From a virus: DNA of 17,582 nucleotides. Both the position numbers and the translations under genes were made by a program. The stretch lies in the UHGV virus genome UHGV-0144530. One strand, written 5' to 3'. Shown one piece after another: positions 4,021 to 9,229 of the stretch. The notes beneath the pieces are model-generated. The model searched no databases. It was given only the letters and a program-made list of their open reading frames with translations, and was not told the origin of the DNA. The number at the start of each line of letters is the position of its first letter. Positions within the stretch are counted from its first letter, which is position 1.

Positions 4021-4608
4021 TCAGAAAGGAGGGTAATCGTTCTGGCTGTAACCATAATCATCTGCATGATTCTGGCTTACGTTTTTAGAGCGATTGTCTT
4101 TATCTTTGAGGCTGGCAACCATGTTGGCGATAGTTTCTGGTTGCTTGCCTTCCGCCTTTTCTTTAAGGGTTTGACCTGTTTGTGCAATAAACGGGATGCG
4201 TATTTCCATCTGGTAGCTGTCTGCGCCAGTCTTTTTGTTTGTGGTTAATACTTTCTGGAGCACTAACCCGATTTTCTTTCCATGAAACTCAGGAGCAACA
4301 AATTTACTGGCGGAAACCATATGTTGCGTTAATTGTCCAATCCCGGCACACCCCATCATGGCGTGAACGACATTTGCGCCAAATTTGTTTTCCGTTCCGT
4401 CATTTTTCTGAACACAGACGCTAAGATATTGGATTTTACGTCCGTCGTCGGATTCTCCAGAAAACTCAATAAATTTGGCTCCTTTTTCTGATTGCTTTAG
4501 TTCTGCTTCAGTAATGGTAATGATATGGGCGCCAGTTTCGTTAATAAAACCACCTTGCCCTGCGGTCAGTGCTGCTTCTTCGTTATAAGTAAAAATCACG
4601 TTGCTCAT
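4021..4608 (-). CDS. putative ssDNA-binding / recombination accessory protein with SSB-like acidic C-terminal tip
   Basis: 195 aa; C-terminus ...DDYGYSQNDYPPF resembles the conserved SSB tail (D-D-D-I-P-F); translationally coupled (ATGA) to the upstream AAA ATPase, as in Sak4-SSB modules. Confidence 0.4.
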   Translation of the reverse strand: MSNVIFTYNEEAALTAGQGGFINETGAHIITITEAELKQSEKGAKFIEFSGESDDGRKIQYLSVCVQKNDGTENKFGANVVHAMMGCAGIGQLTQHMVSASKFVAPEFHGKKIGLVLQKVLTTNKKTGADSYQMEIRIPFIAQTGQTLKEKAEGKQPETIANMVASLKDKDNRSKNVSQNHADDYGYSQNDYPPF

Positions 4609-5285
4609 GCGGCGTTTTCCTTAATTTGATGAACATTATTGATGCCGTAGTAATCACAAACAGTGGCATCGACGAAAGAGAGATCGTTATCAATCTCATT
4701 GGAATCAAACATTCCCATTGGGGATTTGACAGTGTCTGCACCGTTGTTTTTCGTGGTGAAAAAGAACTGGTCATCGCGGGTAAGAGTGCGAAGAACTATA
4801 GTAAACATGCCTTCGACAGTGATTTTCTCGTCCAGCATTTTGCCGATAGTTTTCATTTTCACGCGCCCCATAGGGGTTTCTTCGGTATGTGCAAGAAAAT
4901 AGACTCTCAGGTCATCAGGTGCATCCTGTGCAGCCTTAATCACCTCCCATGCGTGGCGGCCTATCTCAGTAAATTTATCAAACGATTTTTCTTCTGAGCG
5001 GCGCATAAACTCATTGCTCATCACATACTGGAAGTCATCAACAATAACGATTCTTTTTCCGTATTCGTGAGCACGCTTAATTGCAGCAACTATTACGTCC
5101 CATTTGTCAGTGGTAACTACGGTTCCTTTTTTTGCTCTGGCATCCCATGCAAGCCAGTCTTTTGATTTAAATGGTAGCGGCTTGCCTATTGGTTTTATAA
5201 GTATTGCTTCCTCTGGATTGATATTTCTCATGCTGGTTGATTTTCCGGTGCCAGATTCACCGAGTATTAATGTCGCAGTTCCCAT
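4605..5285 (-). CDS. RecA-fold AAA_24-type ATPase (Sak4-like recombination protein)
   Basis: 226 aa; Walker A GESGTGKST near the N-terminus; hydrophobic strand plus acidic residues IVIVDDFQ as Walker B; size and position (where lambda gam/bet/exo sit) match phage Sak4-like ATPases; RBS GAGG. Confidence 0.55.
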   Translation of the reverse strand: MGTATLILGESGTGKSTSMRNINPEEAILIKPIGKPLPFKSKDWLAWDARAKKGTVVTTDKWDVIVAAIKRAHEYGKRIVIVDDFQYVMSNEFMRRSEEKSFDKFTEIGRHAWEVIKAAQDAPDDLRVYFLAHTEETPMGRVKMKTIGKMLDEKITVEGMFTIVLRTLTRDDQFFFTTKNNGADTVKSPMGMFDSNEIDNDLSFVDATVCDYYGINNVHQIKENAA

Positions 5286-5293
5286 AATTTGCC

Positions 5294-5482
5294 TCAGAAT
5301 GGTAATTCGGATGGGCAGGAAAGAAATTCGCGCTCATTCATGCGCTCTCTTTGCGCCTGCCATAAACAAAGTTGTTTCTTTGATTTATCTCCCGCTTTAC
5401 GCCAGTAACGAGCCTCAGCAATGTGATACTCTCTTTTTAATCGACTTAACTCTGGAGTTTTCGCCAGTTCTACCGGAATCAT
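5294..5482 (-). CDS. hypothetical small protein (62 aa)
   Basis: ATG at 5482 preceded by GGAGG; overlaps the kil stop. Confidence 0.4.
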   Translation of the reverse strand: MIPVELAKTPELSRLKREYHIAEARYWRKAGDKSKKQLCLWQAQRERMNEREFLSCPSELPF

Positions 5483-5592
5483 TTTGACCTCCATTTTCTG
5501 TAGGCTTCTACGGCTTCACGAAACATCTTTTCATCGCCAATAAAAGTGGCGATAGTGAATTTAGTCTGGATAGCCATAAGTGTTTTATCCAT
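5479..5592 (-). CDS. kil: Kil-like host-killing protein (37 aa)
   Basis: MDKTLMAIQTKFTIATFIGDEKMFREAV...; start ATGGATAAA overlaps the 3' end of cIII as lambda kil does; identity recalled from memory, not searched. Confidence 0.5.
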   Translation of the reverse strand: MDKTLMAIQTKFTIATFIGDEKMFREAVEAYRKWRSK

Positions 5593-5725
5593 TTTTGGGA
5601 ACTCCTGGCTGATTAAGTATGTCGATAAGGCGTTTCCATCCATCACGTAATTTACGTGTGATTCGTTCAAGTAAAGATTCGGAAGGGCAGCCAGCAACAG
5701 GCCACCCTGCAATGGCATATTGCAT
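5585..5725 (-). CDS. cIII: CIII, inhibitor of FtsH-mediated CII degradation
   Basis: MQYAIAGWPVAGCPSESLLERITRKLRDGWKRLIDILNQPGVPKNG matches lambda CIII almost residue for residue; RBS AAGGAG; ORF-track frame 5585..5827 trimmed to the ATG at 5725. Confidence 0.8.
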   Translation of the reverse strand: MQYAIAGWPVAGCPSESLLERITRKLRDGWKRLIDILNQPGVPKNG

Positions 5726-5782
5726 GGTGTGCTCCTTATTTATACATAACGAAAAACGCCTCGAGTGAAGCGTTATTGGTAT

Positions 5783-5811
5783 GCATATAAAAAGGCCCTC
5801 ACACTGGAGGG
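5783..5811 (-). terminator. intrinsic terminator-like hairpin on minus strand
   Basis: minus-strand CCCTCC-agtgtg-AGGG followed by CCTTTTTATAT; upstream of cIII. Confidence 0.4.
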
Positions 5812-5874
5812 CAAAGAAGATTTCCAATAATCAGAACAAGTCGGCTCCTGTTTAGTTACGAGCGACATTGCTCC

Positions 5875-5902
5875 GTGTATTCACTCGTTGGAATGAATAC
5901 AC
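5875..5902. repeat. perfect 9 bp inverted repeat with 10 nt spacer
   Basis: GTGTATTCA-ctcgttggaa-TGAATACAC; in the untranslated stretch between the orf66 terminator and cIII. Confidence 0.6.
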
Positions 5903-5930
5903 AGTGCAGTGTTTATTCTGTTGTTTATGC

Positions 5931-5960
5931 CAAAAATAAAGGCCACCATCAGGCAGCCTT
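5931..5960 (-). terminator. intrinsic terminator on minus strand
   Basis: minus-strand AGGCTGCC-tgat-GGTGGCCT (8 bp stem with 2 G-U pairs) followed by TTATTTTTGG; the orf66 stop codon lies in the loop. Confidence 0.55.
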
Positions 5961-6149
5961 GTTATTCTGTTTACCAAGTTCTCTGGCAATCATTGCCGTC
6001 GTTCGTATTGCCCATTTATCGACATATTTCCCATCTTCCATTACAGGAAACATTTCTTCAGGCTTAACCATGCATTCCGATTGCAGCTTGCATCCATTGC
6101 ATCGTTTGAATTGCCCACACCATTGATTTTTATCAATAGTCGTAGTCAT
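5949..6149 (-). CDS. hypothetical Cys-rich small protein (66 aa)
   Basis: MTTTIDKNQWCGQFKRCNGCKLQSEC... with four Cys in the first 27 residues; ORF-track ORF. Confidence 0.45.
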   Translation of the reverse strand: MTTTIDKNQWCGQFKRCNGCKLQSECMVKPEEMFPVMEDGKYVDKWAIRTTAMIARELGKQNNKAA

Positions 6150-6219
6150 AAGGATAGTCCTGGTATTGTTCCATCACATCCTGAGGATGCTCTTCGAACT
6201 CTTCAAATTCTTCTTCCAT
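6133..6219 (-). CDS. candidate very acidic micro-protein (28 aa)
   Basis: MEEEFEEFEEHPQDVMEQYQDYPYDYDY; RBS GAGGTG 4 nt upstream of the ATG at 6219; 3' end overlaps the start of orf66; below the ORF-track size cut-off. Confidence 0.3.
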   Translation of the reverse strand: MEEEFEEFEEHPQDVMEQYQDYPYDYDY

Positions 6220-6227
6220 ATATCACC

Positions 6228-6338
6228 TCAAATAAGTGGTTTGCTGCCTAATTTCATTTTCTGGCGACCAACACAAGTCACACCCATTTCACTGCGTGGC
6301 TTGCGGTAGTAAAGATTGTGCCTGTCTTTTAACCACAT
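6228..6338 (-). pseudogene. fossil 3' end of a lambda-type N gene
   Basis: open frame ending ...NLYYRKPRSEMGVTCVGRQKMKLGSKPLI-stop aligns with the lambda N C-terminus ...RTWYSKPGERGITCSGRQKIKGKSIPLI; the frame is open back to about 6392 but has no N-terminal half, ARM or convincing start. Confidence 0.6.
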
Positions 6339-6400
6339 CAGGCTCGGTGGTTCTCGTGTACCCCTACAGCGAGAAAAATAGTAAAATCCTCTTCACCCCC

Positions 6401-6763
6401 TTACTTTGTCAGGGGGATATCTCCTTCAGTTCTGACCATTCGCCTTAATACTTTCCTTAAGTCGATGTAAAGTTGAATGTCTCCATTTGCTGCGGCATCA
6501 GCCATTTTTTGCCTGACAAGCAGTAATGTTTCATACGGCTCAATAAGAATATCGTCATGAGTAATTAGGTGAAGCGTTGCCGCATCAACTATTCCTAGAG
6601 CTGCGCCAAGTATCAAAAATTCCCTGCTATTTTTGTCGCATGAGGAGATAAGCGTATTTAGCGCATACCTAATATTCTTTATAGCTGTTGTTAATGCTGC
6701 AATTTCTTCTATGGCGTCTTCTTCAATGAGCTTTTTAAGCTCATATTTTTCTTCCTGACCCAT
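6401..6763 (-). CDS. hypothetical protein (120 aa) immediately downstream of N
   Basis: ATG at 6763 with RBS GAGG; the N stop TAA lies inside GAGGTAATTATG; ORF-track frame 6401..6847 trimmed; no recognised motif. Confidence 0.5.
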   Translation of the reverse strand: MGQEEKYELKKLIEEDAIEEIAALTTAIKNIRYALNTLISSCDKNSREFLILGAALGIVDAATLHLITHDDILIEPYETLLLVRQKMADAAANGDIQLYIDLRKVLRRMVRTEGDIPLTK

Positions 6764-6765
6764 AA

Positions 6766-7035
6766 TTACCTCGCCGTCAGTTGTTTTGATTTCCGGTAGC
6801 CTGCCGCGTAAATAGCTACGTTTGGCAGGCAAATACTTCCACTGCATTCATCTGCCTTCTTGCAGCGAAGGCTTCCGAGTGATGCTGCTTTATCTGCTCT
6901 GACGCAACCAGAGAGCTTTAGCGCAATTTTTCGTGCCAATCGCTGTTCTTGCATTGCCTGTTCACGTTGAGCCTGTCTGCGTGCTCTGCGGCGATTTCTG
7001 GCGTTATCATCAGCCAGATAAGTAACGATTATCAT
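6766..7035 (-). CDS. N: N-like transcription antiterminator (89 aa)
   Basis: arginine-rich motif NARNRRRARRQAQREQ near the N-terminus; strong RBS GGAGG 5 nt upstream of the ATG at 7035; lies downstream of nutL; ORF-track 6766..7164 is an unsupported in-frame 5' extension. Confidence 0.6.
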   Translation of the reverse strand: MIIVTYLADDNARNRRRARRQAQREQAMQEQRLARKIALKLSGCVRADKAASLGSLRCKKADECSGSICLPNVAIYAAGYRKSKQLTAR

Positions 7036-7465
7036 GTTGACCTCCGATGATTGGCTTTGGTGATTAGGTGGACGGTACTGATCTCCGGCTTGGTTAGTGC
7101 TTCGCCTGGTCATTATCACGCCTAGTGACCCCCTGAGGATCGTCTCCTCGCCAGTGCAGGTCATATCGCATCAGTCTGCGCATTCACCCAATCCCAAAGC
7201 CAACTACTCTTTGACTCACACTCTCGCAGTGAGCGCGCTCATGCCATTGAGTCTCTGCCGCTTCATCGCCGCTGATAACCGGTGCGCGTCTGGCATTCGC
7301 GCTGCTTTACCGGAGCTACTTTTAATATATTGACCCTAACCCGATGCTAAGCAGGCTCGCTCAATGGCGACTCAGGGCAGCATCATTACTGCTGCATTGC
7401 CTTTCGGCTGCGGTCTAACCGCGTTAGTGCACCATTACGGCACCTCCTGTTTGGTTAAACTCAGT

Positions 7466-7507
7466 TCCCGCATTTCGGCGGGACAATCCCATCAATGTTA
7501 AAGAGCC
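7466..7507 (-). promoter_or_regulatory. nutL (boxA plus boxB)
   Basis: minus-strand boxA GGCTCTTTAACA (plus coordinates 7496-7507) followed 12 nt later by hairpin TCCCGC-CGAAAU-GCGGGA (7466-7483); the boxB is identical to that at nutR. Confidence 0.7.
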
Positions 7508-7552
7508 TGCCAATCTGTTCCGTTTGGCTTCCAGCGTCCTGCTGATGGCTTA

Positions 7553-7637
7553 AAGATAACTTAGGTTATAGGTGTGGTCAATAACCTAATTTATATTTTA
7601 TGGTAAATAAGTTATAAGTGATGGATAACAAAGGTAT
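7553..7637 (-). promoter_or_regulatory. OL operators and pL promoter
   Basis: 14 bp palindromes matching ATAAC-N4-GTTAT at 7556-7569 (perfect), 7581-7594 (1 mismatch) and a degenerate copy near 7624-7637; minus-strand -35 TTGACC (7576-7581), 17 bp spacer, -10 TATCTT (7553-7558). Confidence 0.55.
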
Positions 7638-7759
7638 TTTATTTTTGTAAATGTTGCTGATTGATTGGTGTTTGAGGGCTTACGTGCGGGGTGAAGGTGT
7701 TACCTTTGGCTTGATGCTTGTCTATGATGAGGATGGTTGATTGGGTGGTGAACGGCAGG

Positions 7760-7794
7760 AAAAGAAAACCCGGCGCTGAGGCCGGGGGTTTTTA
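7760..7794. terminator. bidirectional intrinsic terminator
   Basis: CCCGGC-gctgag-GCCGGG with an A-run on the left and a T-run on the right, so a U-tract follows the hairpin on either strand; ends the cI-orf98 transcript. Confidence 0.65.
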
Positions 7795-8088
7795 GTCTTT
7801 TCTTTTGCTTAGCATTTCGTCGATTTCTAAGTCAATACGATATTGATCTATTGCTTTTCTCTCGTTTGGGGTTGGTATTTTATACTGTTCAATTAGATCT
7901 GTTGTGTATTTTATTTCATCTAATGTGATTTTTATATCAGAGAGAATCTCTTTTATATCAATTAGATGCTCTTCTTCTTTTGCGCGATTAGAGCTATGTT
8001 CAATCATTTGAGATAGCTTTTTGCTAATGCTTAGCAAAACAAAAAGAATGATGACCAAAACAACAACAAAAACTATCAGAAATTCCAT
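7792..8088 (-). CDS. membrane-anchored coiled-coil protein co-transcribed with cI (98 aa)
   Basis: hydrophobic N-terminal helix EFLIVFVVVLVIILFVLLSI then a charged, heptad-like C-terminal half; strong RBS GGAGGG 4 nt upstream; about 40 nt downstream of the cI stop; strongly AT-rich relative to neighbours. Confidence 0.6.
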   Translation of the reverse strand: MEFLIVFVVVLVIILFVLLSISKKLSQMIEHSSNRAKEEEHLIDIKEILSDIKITLDEIKYTTDLIEQYKIPTPNERKAIDQYRIDLEIDEMLSKRKD

Positions 8089-8128
8089 TATCCCTCCGCA
8101 CTTCCGTAAGTCTTCTTCTGATTATCGG

Positions 8129-8836
8129 TTACCAACTATGAGACGACCAGAATACTCTGCCAATAATCCTTACGGTTTCATGAAATTCATCTCTATCCAT
8201 TACTTCATCCGGGTACTCTTCGCGATTTATTGATCTGATTATCACCGATGTAGGGGTGGCGATTAATGTTTTTACTCGTAACAAATCAGACTGGCAAATA
8301 GCGTAGGTTTTACCATCTCTGATTGTGGTATCTTGCGTGTTAACACCAACAACATCGCCATCGTGAAGCGTTGGTTCCATGCTTTGCCCTACAACCCTAA
8401 CTAGCTTGGCTGATCTTTCTGATACTCCCATCTTTTTCAGATAGTGCTTTCTGAAAACCAAAGAGAACTCCGATGATTCCTCTAGCTCGCAGCTACCGCT
8501 TCCAGCTGAAAGCGAAACGTTAAGAAGAGGCAACGCAACAAACTCGTCATCGTTTCTTTTAATGTCTTCCCATACCACAGCTTTTAAAGATGACTCACGG
8601 ACATTGGATGGTTCTTCATGTGCACCATCCCTCATTTCACCAATACCAGAACTAAGCCATTCAGGACGCACTTTTAAAGCATTGGCTAATTCAACCATCT
8701 TGCGAGATCCGTTTGTTTTACCGGACGACATCTTCTGTATGGCTGGCTGAGATATTCCAACCATGTCAGCAAGCTGTGATTGTGATACCCCTGCTGAGCT
8801 CATGGCTGCATTTAGTCTTTCTGCGAATGTTTTCAT
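8129..8836 (-). CDS. cI: CI-type prophage repressor (HTH plus S24 LexA-like peptidase domain)
   Basis: N-terminal HTH (VSQSQLADMVGISQPAIQKM), Ala-Gly cleavage site in SLSAGSG, catalytic Ser in GQSMEPT and Lys in LRVKTL; ATG at 8836 abuts the operators; ORF-track 8129..8866 begins at an upstream TTG. Confidence 0.85.
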   Translation of the reverse strand: MKTFAERLNAAMSSAGVSQSQLADMVGISQPAIQKMSSGKTNGSRKMVELANALKVRPEWLSSGIGEMRDGAHEEPSNVRESSLKAVVWEDIKRNDDEFVALPLLNVSLSAGSGSCELEESSEFSLVFRKHYLKKMGVSERSAKLVRVVGQSMEPTLHDGDVVGVNTQDTTIRDGKTYAICQSDLLRVKTLIATPTSVIIRSINREEYPDEVMDRDEFHETVRIIGRVFWSSHSW

Positions 8837-8848
8837 ACTCACAAATCT

Positions 8849-8914
8849 ATAACTACGGTTATCCAAAGTAAAATAACAAAGGTTATTGCTATTTTTTATA
8901 ACTTGAGTTATCTT
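8849..8914. promoter_or_regulatory. OR operators with divergent pRM and pR
   Basis: three perfect 14 bp palindromes ATAAC-N4-GTTAT at 8849-8862, 8873-8886 and 8898-8911, centres 24-25 bp apart; plus-strand -35 TTGCTA (8886-8891), 17 bp spacer, -10 TATCTT (8909-8914). Confidence 0.65.
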
Positions 8915-8947
8915 TGGTTATAAGTAATGACCACAAGAGGTATGCTC

Positions 8948-9172
8948 ATGAATTTAGTAATTCAACGAGCCTTGAAAATTGTCGGTAGCCAAAAGCGCCT
9001 TGCCGACAAGTGTGGTGTAACGCAGCCAGCAGTACACAAATGGCTGAAAGGCGGGTTGGTCTCTCCAGAGAAAGTTACCGCCATCGTTAACGCCACTGGA
9101 GGGCAGATCAAGGCTTACGAAATTCGCCCCGATTTGCCACACCTGTTTCCAAAACCGAATCAGGCAGCATAA
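8948..9172 (+). CDS. cro: Cro-like HTH repressor (74 aa)
   Basis: first rightward gene after OR; RBS AAGAGG 8 nt upstream of the ATG at 8948; HTH QKRLADKCGVTQPAVHKW; ORF-track start 8927 is rejected for lack of an RBS. Confidence 0.65.
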   Translation: MNLVIQRALKIVGSQKRLADKCGVTQPAVHKWLKGGLVSPEKVTAIVNATGGQIKAYEIRPDLPHLFPKPNQAA

Positions 9173-9179
9173 GTAACAC

Positions 9180-9223
9180 CGCTCTTTAACAGTCATGGTC
9201 CTCATTCCCGCCGAAATGCGGGA
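9180..9223 (+). promoter_or_regulatory. nutR (boxA plus boxB)
   Basis: boxA CGCTCTTTAACA (9180-9191) and hairpin TCCCGC-CGAAAT-GCGGGA (9206-9223), the same 18 nt as the nutL boxB. Confidence 0.7.
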
Positions 9224-9229
9224 ATACAA

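Follow-up and report, generated by a model that had tools for sequence, protein, structure and literature searches.

Lambdoid phages are mosaics, and leftovers are expected at the joints between their modules. The antitermination protein N offers two described cases against which such a leftover can be read. In lambda N, residues 73-107 form the C-terminal domain that binds RNA polymerase, and the corresponding domain of H-19B N is likewise C-terminal (PMC3526286). The domain is important when a second terminator further downstream is to be read through, and antitermination at the nut-adjacent terminator survives the deletion of much of it (PMC3526286). The second case is gene 24 of phages L and P22. 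According to the phage L report (PMC8022706), the two gp24 proteins are 96% identical over 75 amino acids and unrelated over the last 25-35, the proteins are interchangeable, phage L is without sieB, and ST64T is 99.9% identical to phage L.

The locus studied here lies in a 17,582-nt stretch of the viral genome UHGV-0144530 (hereafter, the window), which is the early region of a lambdoid prophage or phage, with the minus strand as its leftward (pL) operon. Read leftward, the order is a cI-like repressor gene (8129-8866), nutL, a non-coding element (7212-7437), N (6766-7035, minus strand), orf120, an 81-nt segment, the fossil N end that is the subject of this report, orf28 (6133-6219, minus strand; PHROG 16060), ral (5949-6149, minus strand; Pfam Ral, E = 1.6e-48), terminators and the cIII thermoregulator RNA (5680-5738; Rfam, at gathering thresholds). 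An IMG/VR contig (IMGVR_UViG_3300045988_010512) is 99.98% identical to the window over the 6 kb compared, and window positions 4600-9200 are covered to at most 79% in any complete E. coli genome of the collection. A first-pass annotation made from the sequence alone had read the frame at 6228-6392 as the 3' end of a lambda-type N, left behind downstream of a functional N of a different type when an ancestral N and its immunity region were replaced.

The functional N is where that annotation placed it. The protein encoded at 6766-7035 matches Pfam PF25694 (N_peptide, E = 2.2e-15) and PHROG 271 (E = 2.5e-33); the Pfam match takes in residues 10-89, that is, up to the last residue (profile positions 13-100 of 100), and includes the YAAG(Y/H)RKSKQ(L/I)TAR end. 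Its presumed targets also agree with what had been claimed, since nutL (7466-7506, minus strand; boxA GCTCTTTAA and boxB TCCCGCCGAAATGCGGGA, with the boxB hairpin at about 7466-7483) and nutR (plus strand; boxA 9180-9189, boxB 9205-9224) carry boxB hairpins of one sequence, CCCGCCGAAATGCGGG. The nutL sequence of the window is identical in HK620, HZ41, phi296, Stx1a_10051 and ETEC1730, and the HK620 record annotates a putative nutL over the equivalent stretch.

Downstream of N, the minus-strand stop-to-stop frame spans exactly 6228-6392 and contains, in frame, an ATG-initiated ORF of 36 codons (6228-6338; peptide MWLKDRHNLYYRKPRSEMGVTCVGRQKMKLGSKPLI, then stop). Residues 10-36 of this ORF are identical to lambda N residues 82-107 at 16 of 27 positions (BLASTP, E = 3e-8), and residues 7-36 match positions 142-171 of the 176 in PHROG 271, 'anti-termination protein N-like' (E = 2.6e-11), so that the end of the frame does align with the lambda N C-terminus as first proposed. 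At nucleotide resolution, the N-derived part is confined to 6228-6313 (minus strand). It consists of two nucleotides of an Ile codon, 27 codons (YYRKPRSEMGVTCVGRQKMKLGSKPLI) and the TGA stop at 6228-6230, and its last bases (TTATTTGAGGTGATATATG) include the Shine-Dalgarno region of orf28. Compared with the 3' ends of intact N genes, these 86 nt show no mismatch to HZ41, two each to phage 21 and CUS-3 and five to Sf101, and all 27 amino acids are the same as in CUS-3 and HZ41 N. Of 120 IMG/VR contigs in which a 21-type N is intact, 47 have the exact 86-mer as the end of that gene. The N 3' end of lambda itself agrees with the fossil at just 41 of 86 positions in an ungapped comparison. The fossil allele is therefore of the phage 21/HZ41 type (type A below), and the label 'lambda-type' is right for the protein family and wrong for the nucleotide allele.

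The similarity to N ends between 6313 and 6314, and hence 6314-6392, which had been counted as part of the fossil, is not N-derived. The frame is blocked by a stop 18 codons 5' of its ATG, and both the N-terminal half and the arginine-rich motif are lacking, as the first reading had noted; the ORF thus has homology to the RNA polymerase-binding C-terminal part of N without the motif that binds boxB. Rather than the 3' end of an intact longer gene with a proper start, we find the terminal part of a gene that is intact and nearly identical elsewhere and of which the rest is gone.

We located the rest by local alignment of window positions 5800-7300 with fourteen reference loci. HZ41 and CUS-3 have an uninterrupted 99-aa N (MTVVITYLADDNARNRRRARRQAQREQAMQEQRLARKIALKLSGCVRADKAASLGSLRCKKAEEVESKQNRIYYRKPRSEMGVTCVGRQKMKLGSKPLI, then stop), which ends in RCKKAEEVESKQNRIYYRKPRSEMGVTCVGRQKMKLGSKPLI. 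Window positions 5800-6313 correspond to HZ41 201-714 (98.8% identical). The following 22 nt of HZ41 (715-736, GTAGAGAGTAAACAGAATCGTA) are absent from the window, which has 533 nt (6314-6846) in their place, and the correspondence resumes at 6847-7060, equivalent to HZ41 737-953 (94.9% identical). The resumed part covers the 5' two-thirds of the resident N, that is, 63 codons (6847-7035, minus strand) including the arginine-rich motif NARNRRRARRQ; they are collinear with N genes whose 3' end is the fossil sequence, and divergence from HZ41, CUS-3 and phage 21 begins exactly at the joint between 6846 and 6847. Identity on the far side of this joint is 94.2% to CUS-3 (6847-7050) and 97.8% to phage 21 N (6847-6938). 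Given this collinearity, a single N gene is represented by the 63 codons at one end and by the fossil at the other.

The last 26 codons and stop of the resident N (CSGSICLPNVAIYAAGYRKSKQLTAR; 6766-6846, minus strand) have a different affiliation and align with the N proteins of HK620, HK97, ev207 and P22-like phages; we refer to this P22/HK97/HK620-type end as type B. The earlier statement that the resident N is of a different type consequently holds for these 26 codons and fails for the first 63, which are 94-95% identical to CUS-3/HZ41 N. The swapped part of the protein corresponds to the RNA polymerase-binding C-terminal domain. In addition to the type B tail, the 533 nt contain orf120, a homologue of hkaQ (6401-6763, minus strand; 120 aa; PHROG 7374, function unknown, E = 3.7e-79), and a segment otherwise found upstream of sieB.

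Three pairs of genomes with and without this cassette show the same difference: CUS-3 or HZ41 against the window, Sf101 against lambda, and ST64T against P22-like phages. Where the cassette is absent, an N body with a 21/L-type tail directly adjoins orf28-ral, a module (5949-6219) that is 97.8% identical in the window to both lambda and phage 21 and that lies directly 3' of N in phage 21, CUS-3, HZ41, Sf101 and ST64T. Where it is present, the same N body has another tail, after which come the exclusion cassette, the 81-nt segment and the relic, with orf28-ral last. Phage 21, CUS-3 and HZ41 are the closest known counterparts with an undisturbed arrangement: the last 86 nt of their N genes agree with the fossil at 84-86 of 86 positions, and the N 5' part and orf28-ral are collinear with the window. 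In CUS-3 and HZ41, however, a functional 99-aa N still ends with these 86 nt, whereas in the window 533 nt separate them from the gene and the sequence before them is unrelated. The exchange between phage L/ST64T and P22 at gene 24 is similar, with the N body kept, the last 25-35 amino acids unrelated and the presence or absence of sieB tracking the swap (PMC8022706); the accessible part of that report gives the difference between the proteins and describes no displaced tail in P22.

The stretch between the fossil and orf120 (6314-6399) matches a segment that lies directly upstream of sieB or hkaP in HK620, lambda, ev207, HK140 and UAB_Phi20. More specifically, the 81 nt at 6319-6399 are 98.8% identical to the hkaP-upstream segment of HK620; lambda 34373-34453 matches 6296-6376 at 98.8% identity, and ev207, HK140 and the P22-like phage UAB_Phi20 match 6296-6399 at 90-91%. 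Beside this segment, HK620, lambda, P22-like phages, ev207 and HK140 have an exclusion gene (hkaP or sieB) in the opposite orientation, the sieB start of ev207 lying 26 nt past the segment. Comparison with HK620 and Stx1a_10051 shows sieB/hkaP itself to be absent from the window locus: these two have about 534 nt, including the 495-nt hkaP, between the equivalents of 6399 and 6388, and the window has none, so that of the exclusion gene's surroundings only the 81-nt upstream segment remains. In HK620, hkaP is flanked by an imperfect direct repeat, CCTCTT(C)ACCCC. HK620 is otherwise very close to the window on this side, with hkaQ and N 97.5% identical to 6388-7060, yet it is the opposite of the window in content, having kept hkaP but neither the fossil nor orf28 nor ral; past the segment it continues directly with the counterpart of window position 5918, the switch lying at a GGCA(TA) microhomology. 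Pfam and PADLOC searches returned nothing meaningful for hkaQ or hkaP.

The downstream joint, at which GACAGGCACAATC meets TTTACTAC, is not peculiar to the window. A search with an exact 21-mer across it found at least 120 IMG/VR contigs, and the joint is also present in lambda, UAB_Phi20, ev207, HK140, Stx1a_10051, ETEC1730 and E2865. A sharp joint common to this many genomes points to a single origin followed by spread. Among 5426 complete E. coli genomes, 87 contain the full fossil together with the segment from upstream of sieB, and 1960 contain parts of the 183-nt query (relic plus segment). A further 22 joint matches in GTDB species genomes were considered as evidence on host range and set aside; they come from non-enteric assemblies, many of the contigs are short or of low coverage, and with three contigs of about 48.4-48.5 kb among them they look like lambda DNA contamination, which is uninformative on host range.

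For the comparison of copies, we examined 142 joint-bearing loci, namely 120 IMG/VR contigs (among the matches listed) and 22 contigs from genome assemblies. Among the matches listed, 112 of the 142 have a deletion between GCAA(G/A)CCAC repeats within the relic, the full fossil is found in 30, and the exact layout of the window (full relic with hkaQ and no hkaP) in six. The deletion removes 60 nt and is in frame in some carriers. It is present in the P22-like phage UAB_Phi20, in ev207 and in HK140, and lambda adds a 1-nt frameshift: its joint, at about 34.4 kb, sits between sieB (ORF 34482-35036) and orf28, leaving the stub MWLKDRHNLYYRNPLFKVIYGRRI and a stop. Lambda (J02459, about 34341-34453), the P22-like phages, ev207 and HK140 therefore have the joint and the sieB-upstream segment as in the window, but they have lost 60 nt of the fossil and kept sieB, neither of which is true of the window. 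The active N genes differ as well, as lambda's own N has a lambda-specific type A tail and the window N a type B tail.

On either side of this one joint the sequences vary. What follows it is one of several type A alleles and then one of at least eight different genes, among them orf28-ral and an HK97 gp45-like gene; before it come the lambda sieB, a P22-type sieB, hkaP with hkaQ, or hkaQ alone, and the N bodies differ too. Recombination has thus clearly continued within or around the relic.

At least three joints of this general kind are independent of each other: the window/lambda class at 6313, an HK97 class at about 6281 and a phi296 class at about 6251, with about 24 nt of the type A tail left in phi296. 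HK97 resembles the window in having a type B N tail followed by a 21-type N 3' remnant (54 nt, ending in VTCVGRQKMKLGSKPLI and a stop), which is 98.5% identical over window positions 6217-6281. Its joint is nevertheless of separate origin. The TGA of N is formed by the first bases of the remnant, which joins the N coding end directly, there is no cassette between N and remnant, and the downstream gene is gp45-like rather than orf28-ral as in the window. The N genes of H-19B and Stx phages give the same partial matches as the HK97 remnant; matches limited to the stretch retained by HK97 are common in Stx phages and O157:H7 chromosomes, which suggests the same arrangement there.

Copies of the fossil also differ from intact N ends in how they change. 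Private variants in the fossil copies comprise no synonymous and seven nonsynonymous changes, compared to 24 synonymous and 14 nonsynonymous among 89 N ends that are intact (Fisher p = 0.0026, on small numbers of variants and sequences that are not independent). That all private variants are nonsynonymous indicates relaxed constraint, as neutrality predicts, and fits a relic. Decay or relaxed selection is seen in the 60-nt deletion in 112 of 142 loci (among the matches listed), the lambda frameshift and the skew in variants. The window copy itself is free of private mutations, with its frame intact and an ATG present, and only its relatives show decay. A function of the fossil at the RNA level was considered and rejected: folding of 6215-6420 (minus strand) gave no structure signal (z = -0.73), the only Rfam match in the window at gathering thresholds is the cIII thermoregulator, which lies outside the fossil, and a scan of 5700-7400 for promoters and terminators found none in 6200-6420, the only leftward-strand terminators in the scanned region lying after ral (5755-5960). 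Every variant of the relic keeps at least the end bases CCAC(T)TATTT(G/A)AGGTGA, which hold the Shine-Dalgarno sequence of the next gene; their constant presence fits selection on downstream translation and not on the relic itself.

Taken together, we interpret 6228-6313 as the orphaned last 86 nt of a phage 21/CUS-3-type N, a dead relic without a function of its own, and assign this reading a probability of roughly 0.85. It keeps the core of the first-pass annotation, namely a non-functional N 3' fragment at a recombination joint, with orf120 between it and the functional N. A cassette would have joined into the 3' region of N and parted the native tail from its gene, 533 nt taking the place of 22. 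The same cassette would have brought a substitute P22/HK97-type C-terminal end (6766-6846), and with that tail on board N would have stayed complete, with its own arginine-rich motif, its own middle and a new tail at the position of the RNA polymerase-binding domain. It would also have brought hkaQ and the upstream region of the superinfection-exclusion gene (sieB/hkaP), and the gene itself would have been lost, or never gained, at a site that in HK620 is bounded by short repeats. We infer the polarity, an insertion into an intact gene and not a more complex exchange, from the intact relatives; as 22 nt of the intact genes are missing here, a layout like that of the window cannot simply delete back to the intact form. 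The downstream joint would have arisen once, presumably by illegitimate recombination, and homologous recombination would then have carried it to other lambdoid phages, lambda and the P22-like ones among them. Three things probably explain why the relic is still there: its last bases are the orf28 ribosome-binding site, it is young or homogenised against intact N genes, and there is no selection against it.

A different role for the fossil, compatible with its being a relic, would be that of a homology arm: flanks derived from N could let the cassette enter or leave, by homologous recombination, whichever phage has a 21-type N, and at the N stop codon left-arm modules could likewise be exchanged. 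The single joint with its several type A alleles and at least eight genes on one side and its varied cassettes and N bodies on the other is what this would produce, and the fossil is 100% identical to an intact N allele in current circulation. Use in recombination is, however, no proof of selection for that role, and the common form with the 60-nt deletion retains little homology; we consider the idea possible, though doubtful. A more far-reaching version would see the fossil as the footprint of 'gene-end-replacement' cassettes, in which accessory genes (sieB, hkaP, hkaQ) travel with a substitute N C-terminal end, land in N, on which early gene expression of the phage depends, without inactivating it and, flanked by N-derived homology, hop by homologous recombination between lambdoid phages whose N genes are compatible. 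The N 3' end, with its three or more independent joints, would then be a preferred, reusable docking site and the relic a working homology arm. We put this forward tentatively and regard it as unlikely in full.

The original proposal, that an ancestral lambda-type N and its immunity region were swapped wholesale for a different module and only the old N 3' end was left, would account for a fossil lying 3' of a functional N and for two C-termini of different kinds. The two sides may moreover have had separate histories, since HZ41/CUS-3 are 98-99% identical to the window across the fossil and ral but 94-95% identical across the 5' part of N. It is largely refuted by the collinearity, however. 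The 63 codons of the resident N are of the same type as the N genes of CUS-3 and HZ41 that end in fossil sequence, identity to phage 21 N reaches 97.8% over 6847-6938, and the whole difference is a replacement of 22 nt by 533 nt inside N, while HZ41, phi296 and HK620 share the nutL boxA and boxB of the window. We regard a wholesale replacement as very improbable.

Least credible of all is that the 36-codon ORF (6228-6338) is a real small gene, either a free copy of the N C-terminal end competing with the type A N of superinfecting phages or a leader ORF coupled to orf28/ral, for although the ORF is intact with an ATG, its frame is kept in 30 of the 30 full-length fossils examined (other alleles included, such as one ending in GRQKQRGKSIPAYYD and a stop), its stop codon overlaps the orf28 Shine-Dalgarno and the C-terminal domain binds RNA polymerase in lambda and H-19B N (PMC3526286), the unrelated, non-N segment is the source of the first eight codons and of the fortuitous ATG (6336-6338), which has only a weak GAG before it, most carriers of the joint (among the matches listed) have the 60-nt deletion, lambda is frameshifted, HK620 has no fossil at all, the private variants are all nonsynonymous, and repeated recombination with intact N genes could keep the frame.

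A separate observation concerns the space between nutL and N, where the window has about 250 nt that are absent in HK620, HZ41 and phi296. Phages of E. coli, Hafnia, Klebsiella, Edwardsiella and Providencia have homologues of this element that are 69-99% identical, in none of which a gene is annotated on the strand of the element, and Rfam 15 has no family that matches the window copy or six homologues, even at E <= 1. We built a covariance model from seven sequences (core of about 228 nt; 7212-7437, minus strand, in the window) and applied it to 100 IMG/VR loci fetched with a degenerate 18-mer from a conserved stretch, CTCAAKGGCATRRGCGYG. The model gave 93 matches in the 100 loci, nearly all at 70-264 bits. 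In the alignment, 91.6% of cells pair, compared to 28-42% with slid partners; compensatory changes are present in 36 of 53 pairs, and none of 500 shuffles reaches the observed values. We discarded the possibility of an antisense protein-coding gene, as an open frame of any kind is found in just 21 of the 79 unique copies and a 3-nt periodicity is lacking. The element always has the sense orientation and always belongs to an antiterminated operon, where it occupies the leader or an intercistronic gap. In 18 loci, which represent two Q families, it follows a Q-like gene at a distance of 116-131 nt; it also occurs about 83 nt before holin genes and, in 14 loci, between nutL and N. It appears to be an undescribed, widespread phage RNA, and it may be the more valuable lead in this window.

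We found no description of this particular N relic in the searchable full-text literature, whose matches did not include the classic papers (Franklin 1985 J Mol Biol 181:75 and 85; Juhala et al. 2000; Clark et al. 2001). As a scar, it is of a well-known kind in lambdoid mosaicism, ordinary though very clear. Its value lies in being an unusually clean and datable example, running from a pristine 86-nt copy over the 60-nt in-frame deletion to the frameshifted stub of lambda, with three pairs of genomes that reveal what was inserted. The relic accounts for the short 'hypothetical protein' calls beside ral in lambda-like genomes. For the family as a whole, the comparison shows the last 25-35 codons of N behaving as an exchangeable module that moves with exclusion genes, and it makes this locus a natural substrate for asking whether conserved gene ends serve phage mosaicism as recombination linkers.

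The joint between the relic and the sieB/hkaP-upstream segment is shared with lambda (J02459, 34341–34453) and with the P22-like phage UAB_Phi20, ev207 and HK140. In these four genomes the joint is the same as in the window, but the relic lacks 60 nt, and this deletion falls between GCAA(G/A)CCAC repeats. The lambda relic has lost a further 1 nt, leaving a 24-codon open reading frame that overlaps the start of orf28 and is annotated as a hypothetical protein in some lambda records. The joint is also matched exactly in 22 GTDB species-representative assemblies, all of non-enteric taxa (Shewanella, Pseudomonas, Paenibacillus, Bradyrhizobium and others). Many of these matches are on contigs that are short or of low coverage, and three lie on contigs of ~48.4–48.5 kb; the set looks like contamination of the assemblies with lambda control DNA.

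A shorter relic is found in HK97 (1201–1265), where the coding end of a type B N gene, that is one with a P22/HK97/HK620-type tail, directly adjoins a remnant comprising the terminal 54 nt of a 21-type N tail. The TGA stop codon of HK97 N is supplied by the first bases of this remnant (...KQLTAR*, continuing into CTTGTGTTGG...). The HK97 remnant is a relic independent of the joint in the window. Stx phages and chromosomes of E. coli O157:H7 also give short hits over the same stretch, and 11 of 40 rows in an even sample of the E. coli hits match the remnant stretch only.

HK620 shows a different break (~1497–1501 in HK620, against window 5918 and 6319). Here, the sieB-upstream segment continues directly, through a GGCA(TA) microhomology, into the counterpart of window 5918. 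HK620 appears to derive from an arrangement like that of the window by a deletion that removed the relic, orf28 and ral. The 495-nt putative exclusion gene hkaP is present in HK620, Stx1a_10051, ETEC1730 and E2865, and is not found in the window. An imperfect direct repeat, CCTCTT(C)ACCCC, lies on both sides of hkaP in HK620 (1569–1580 and 2114–2125, compared with window 6388–6399), which suggests that the gene was deleted or inserted between short repeats.

In E. coli ETEC1730, PGAP gives the label ‘antitermination N domain protein’ to the hkaQ homologue and calls the real N a ‘hypothetical protein’. In E. coli E2865, N is reduced to its 3' 90 nt, annotated as an incomplete ‘regulator’ pseudogene; the 5' part of N has therefore been lost from this prophage. 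Elsewhere in the window, Rfam identifies the cIII thermoregulator Lambda_thermo on the minus strand at 5680–5738 (88.5 bits), an ordinary match that fits a lambda-like left arm.

Between nutL and N, the minus strand carries a conserved non-coding element of ~228 nt (7212–7437), which is absent from HK620, HZ41 and phi296. Homologues are found in phages of E. coli, Hafnia, Klebsiella, Edwardsiella and Providencia. The element always lies in sense orientation in the leaders of antiterminated operons, where it follows Q genes, precedes holin genes or separates nutL from N. A protein-coding reading of the element was ruled out. Searched against Rfam 15, it had no match even at E<=1. A covariance model gave 93 matches in 100 IMG/VR loci, which had been fetched with a degenerate 18-mer from a conserved stretch of the element. 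In the resulting alignment, 91.6% of cells pair, compared to ~30–40% in slid controls, and compensatory changes are seen at 36 of the 53 pairs. The element is probably a structured phage RNA that has not been described before.
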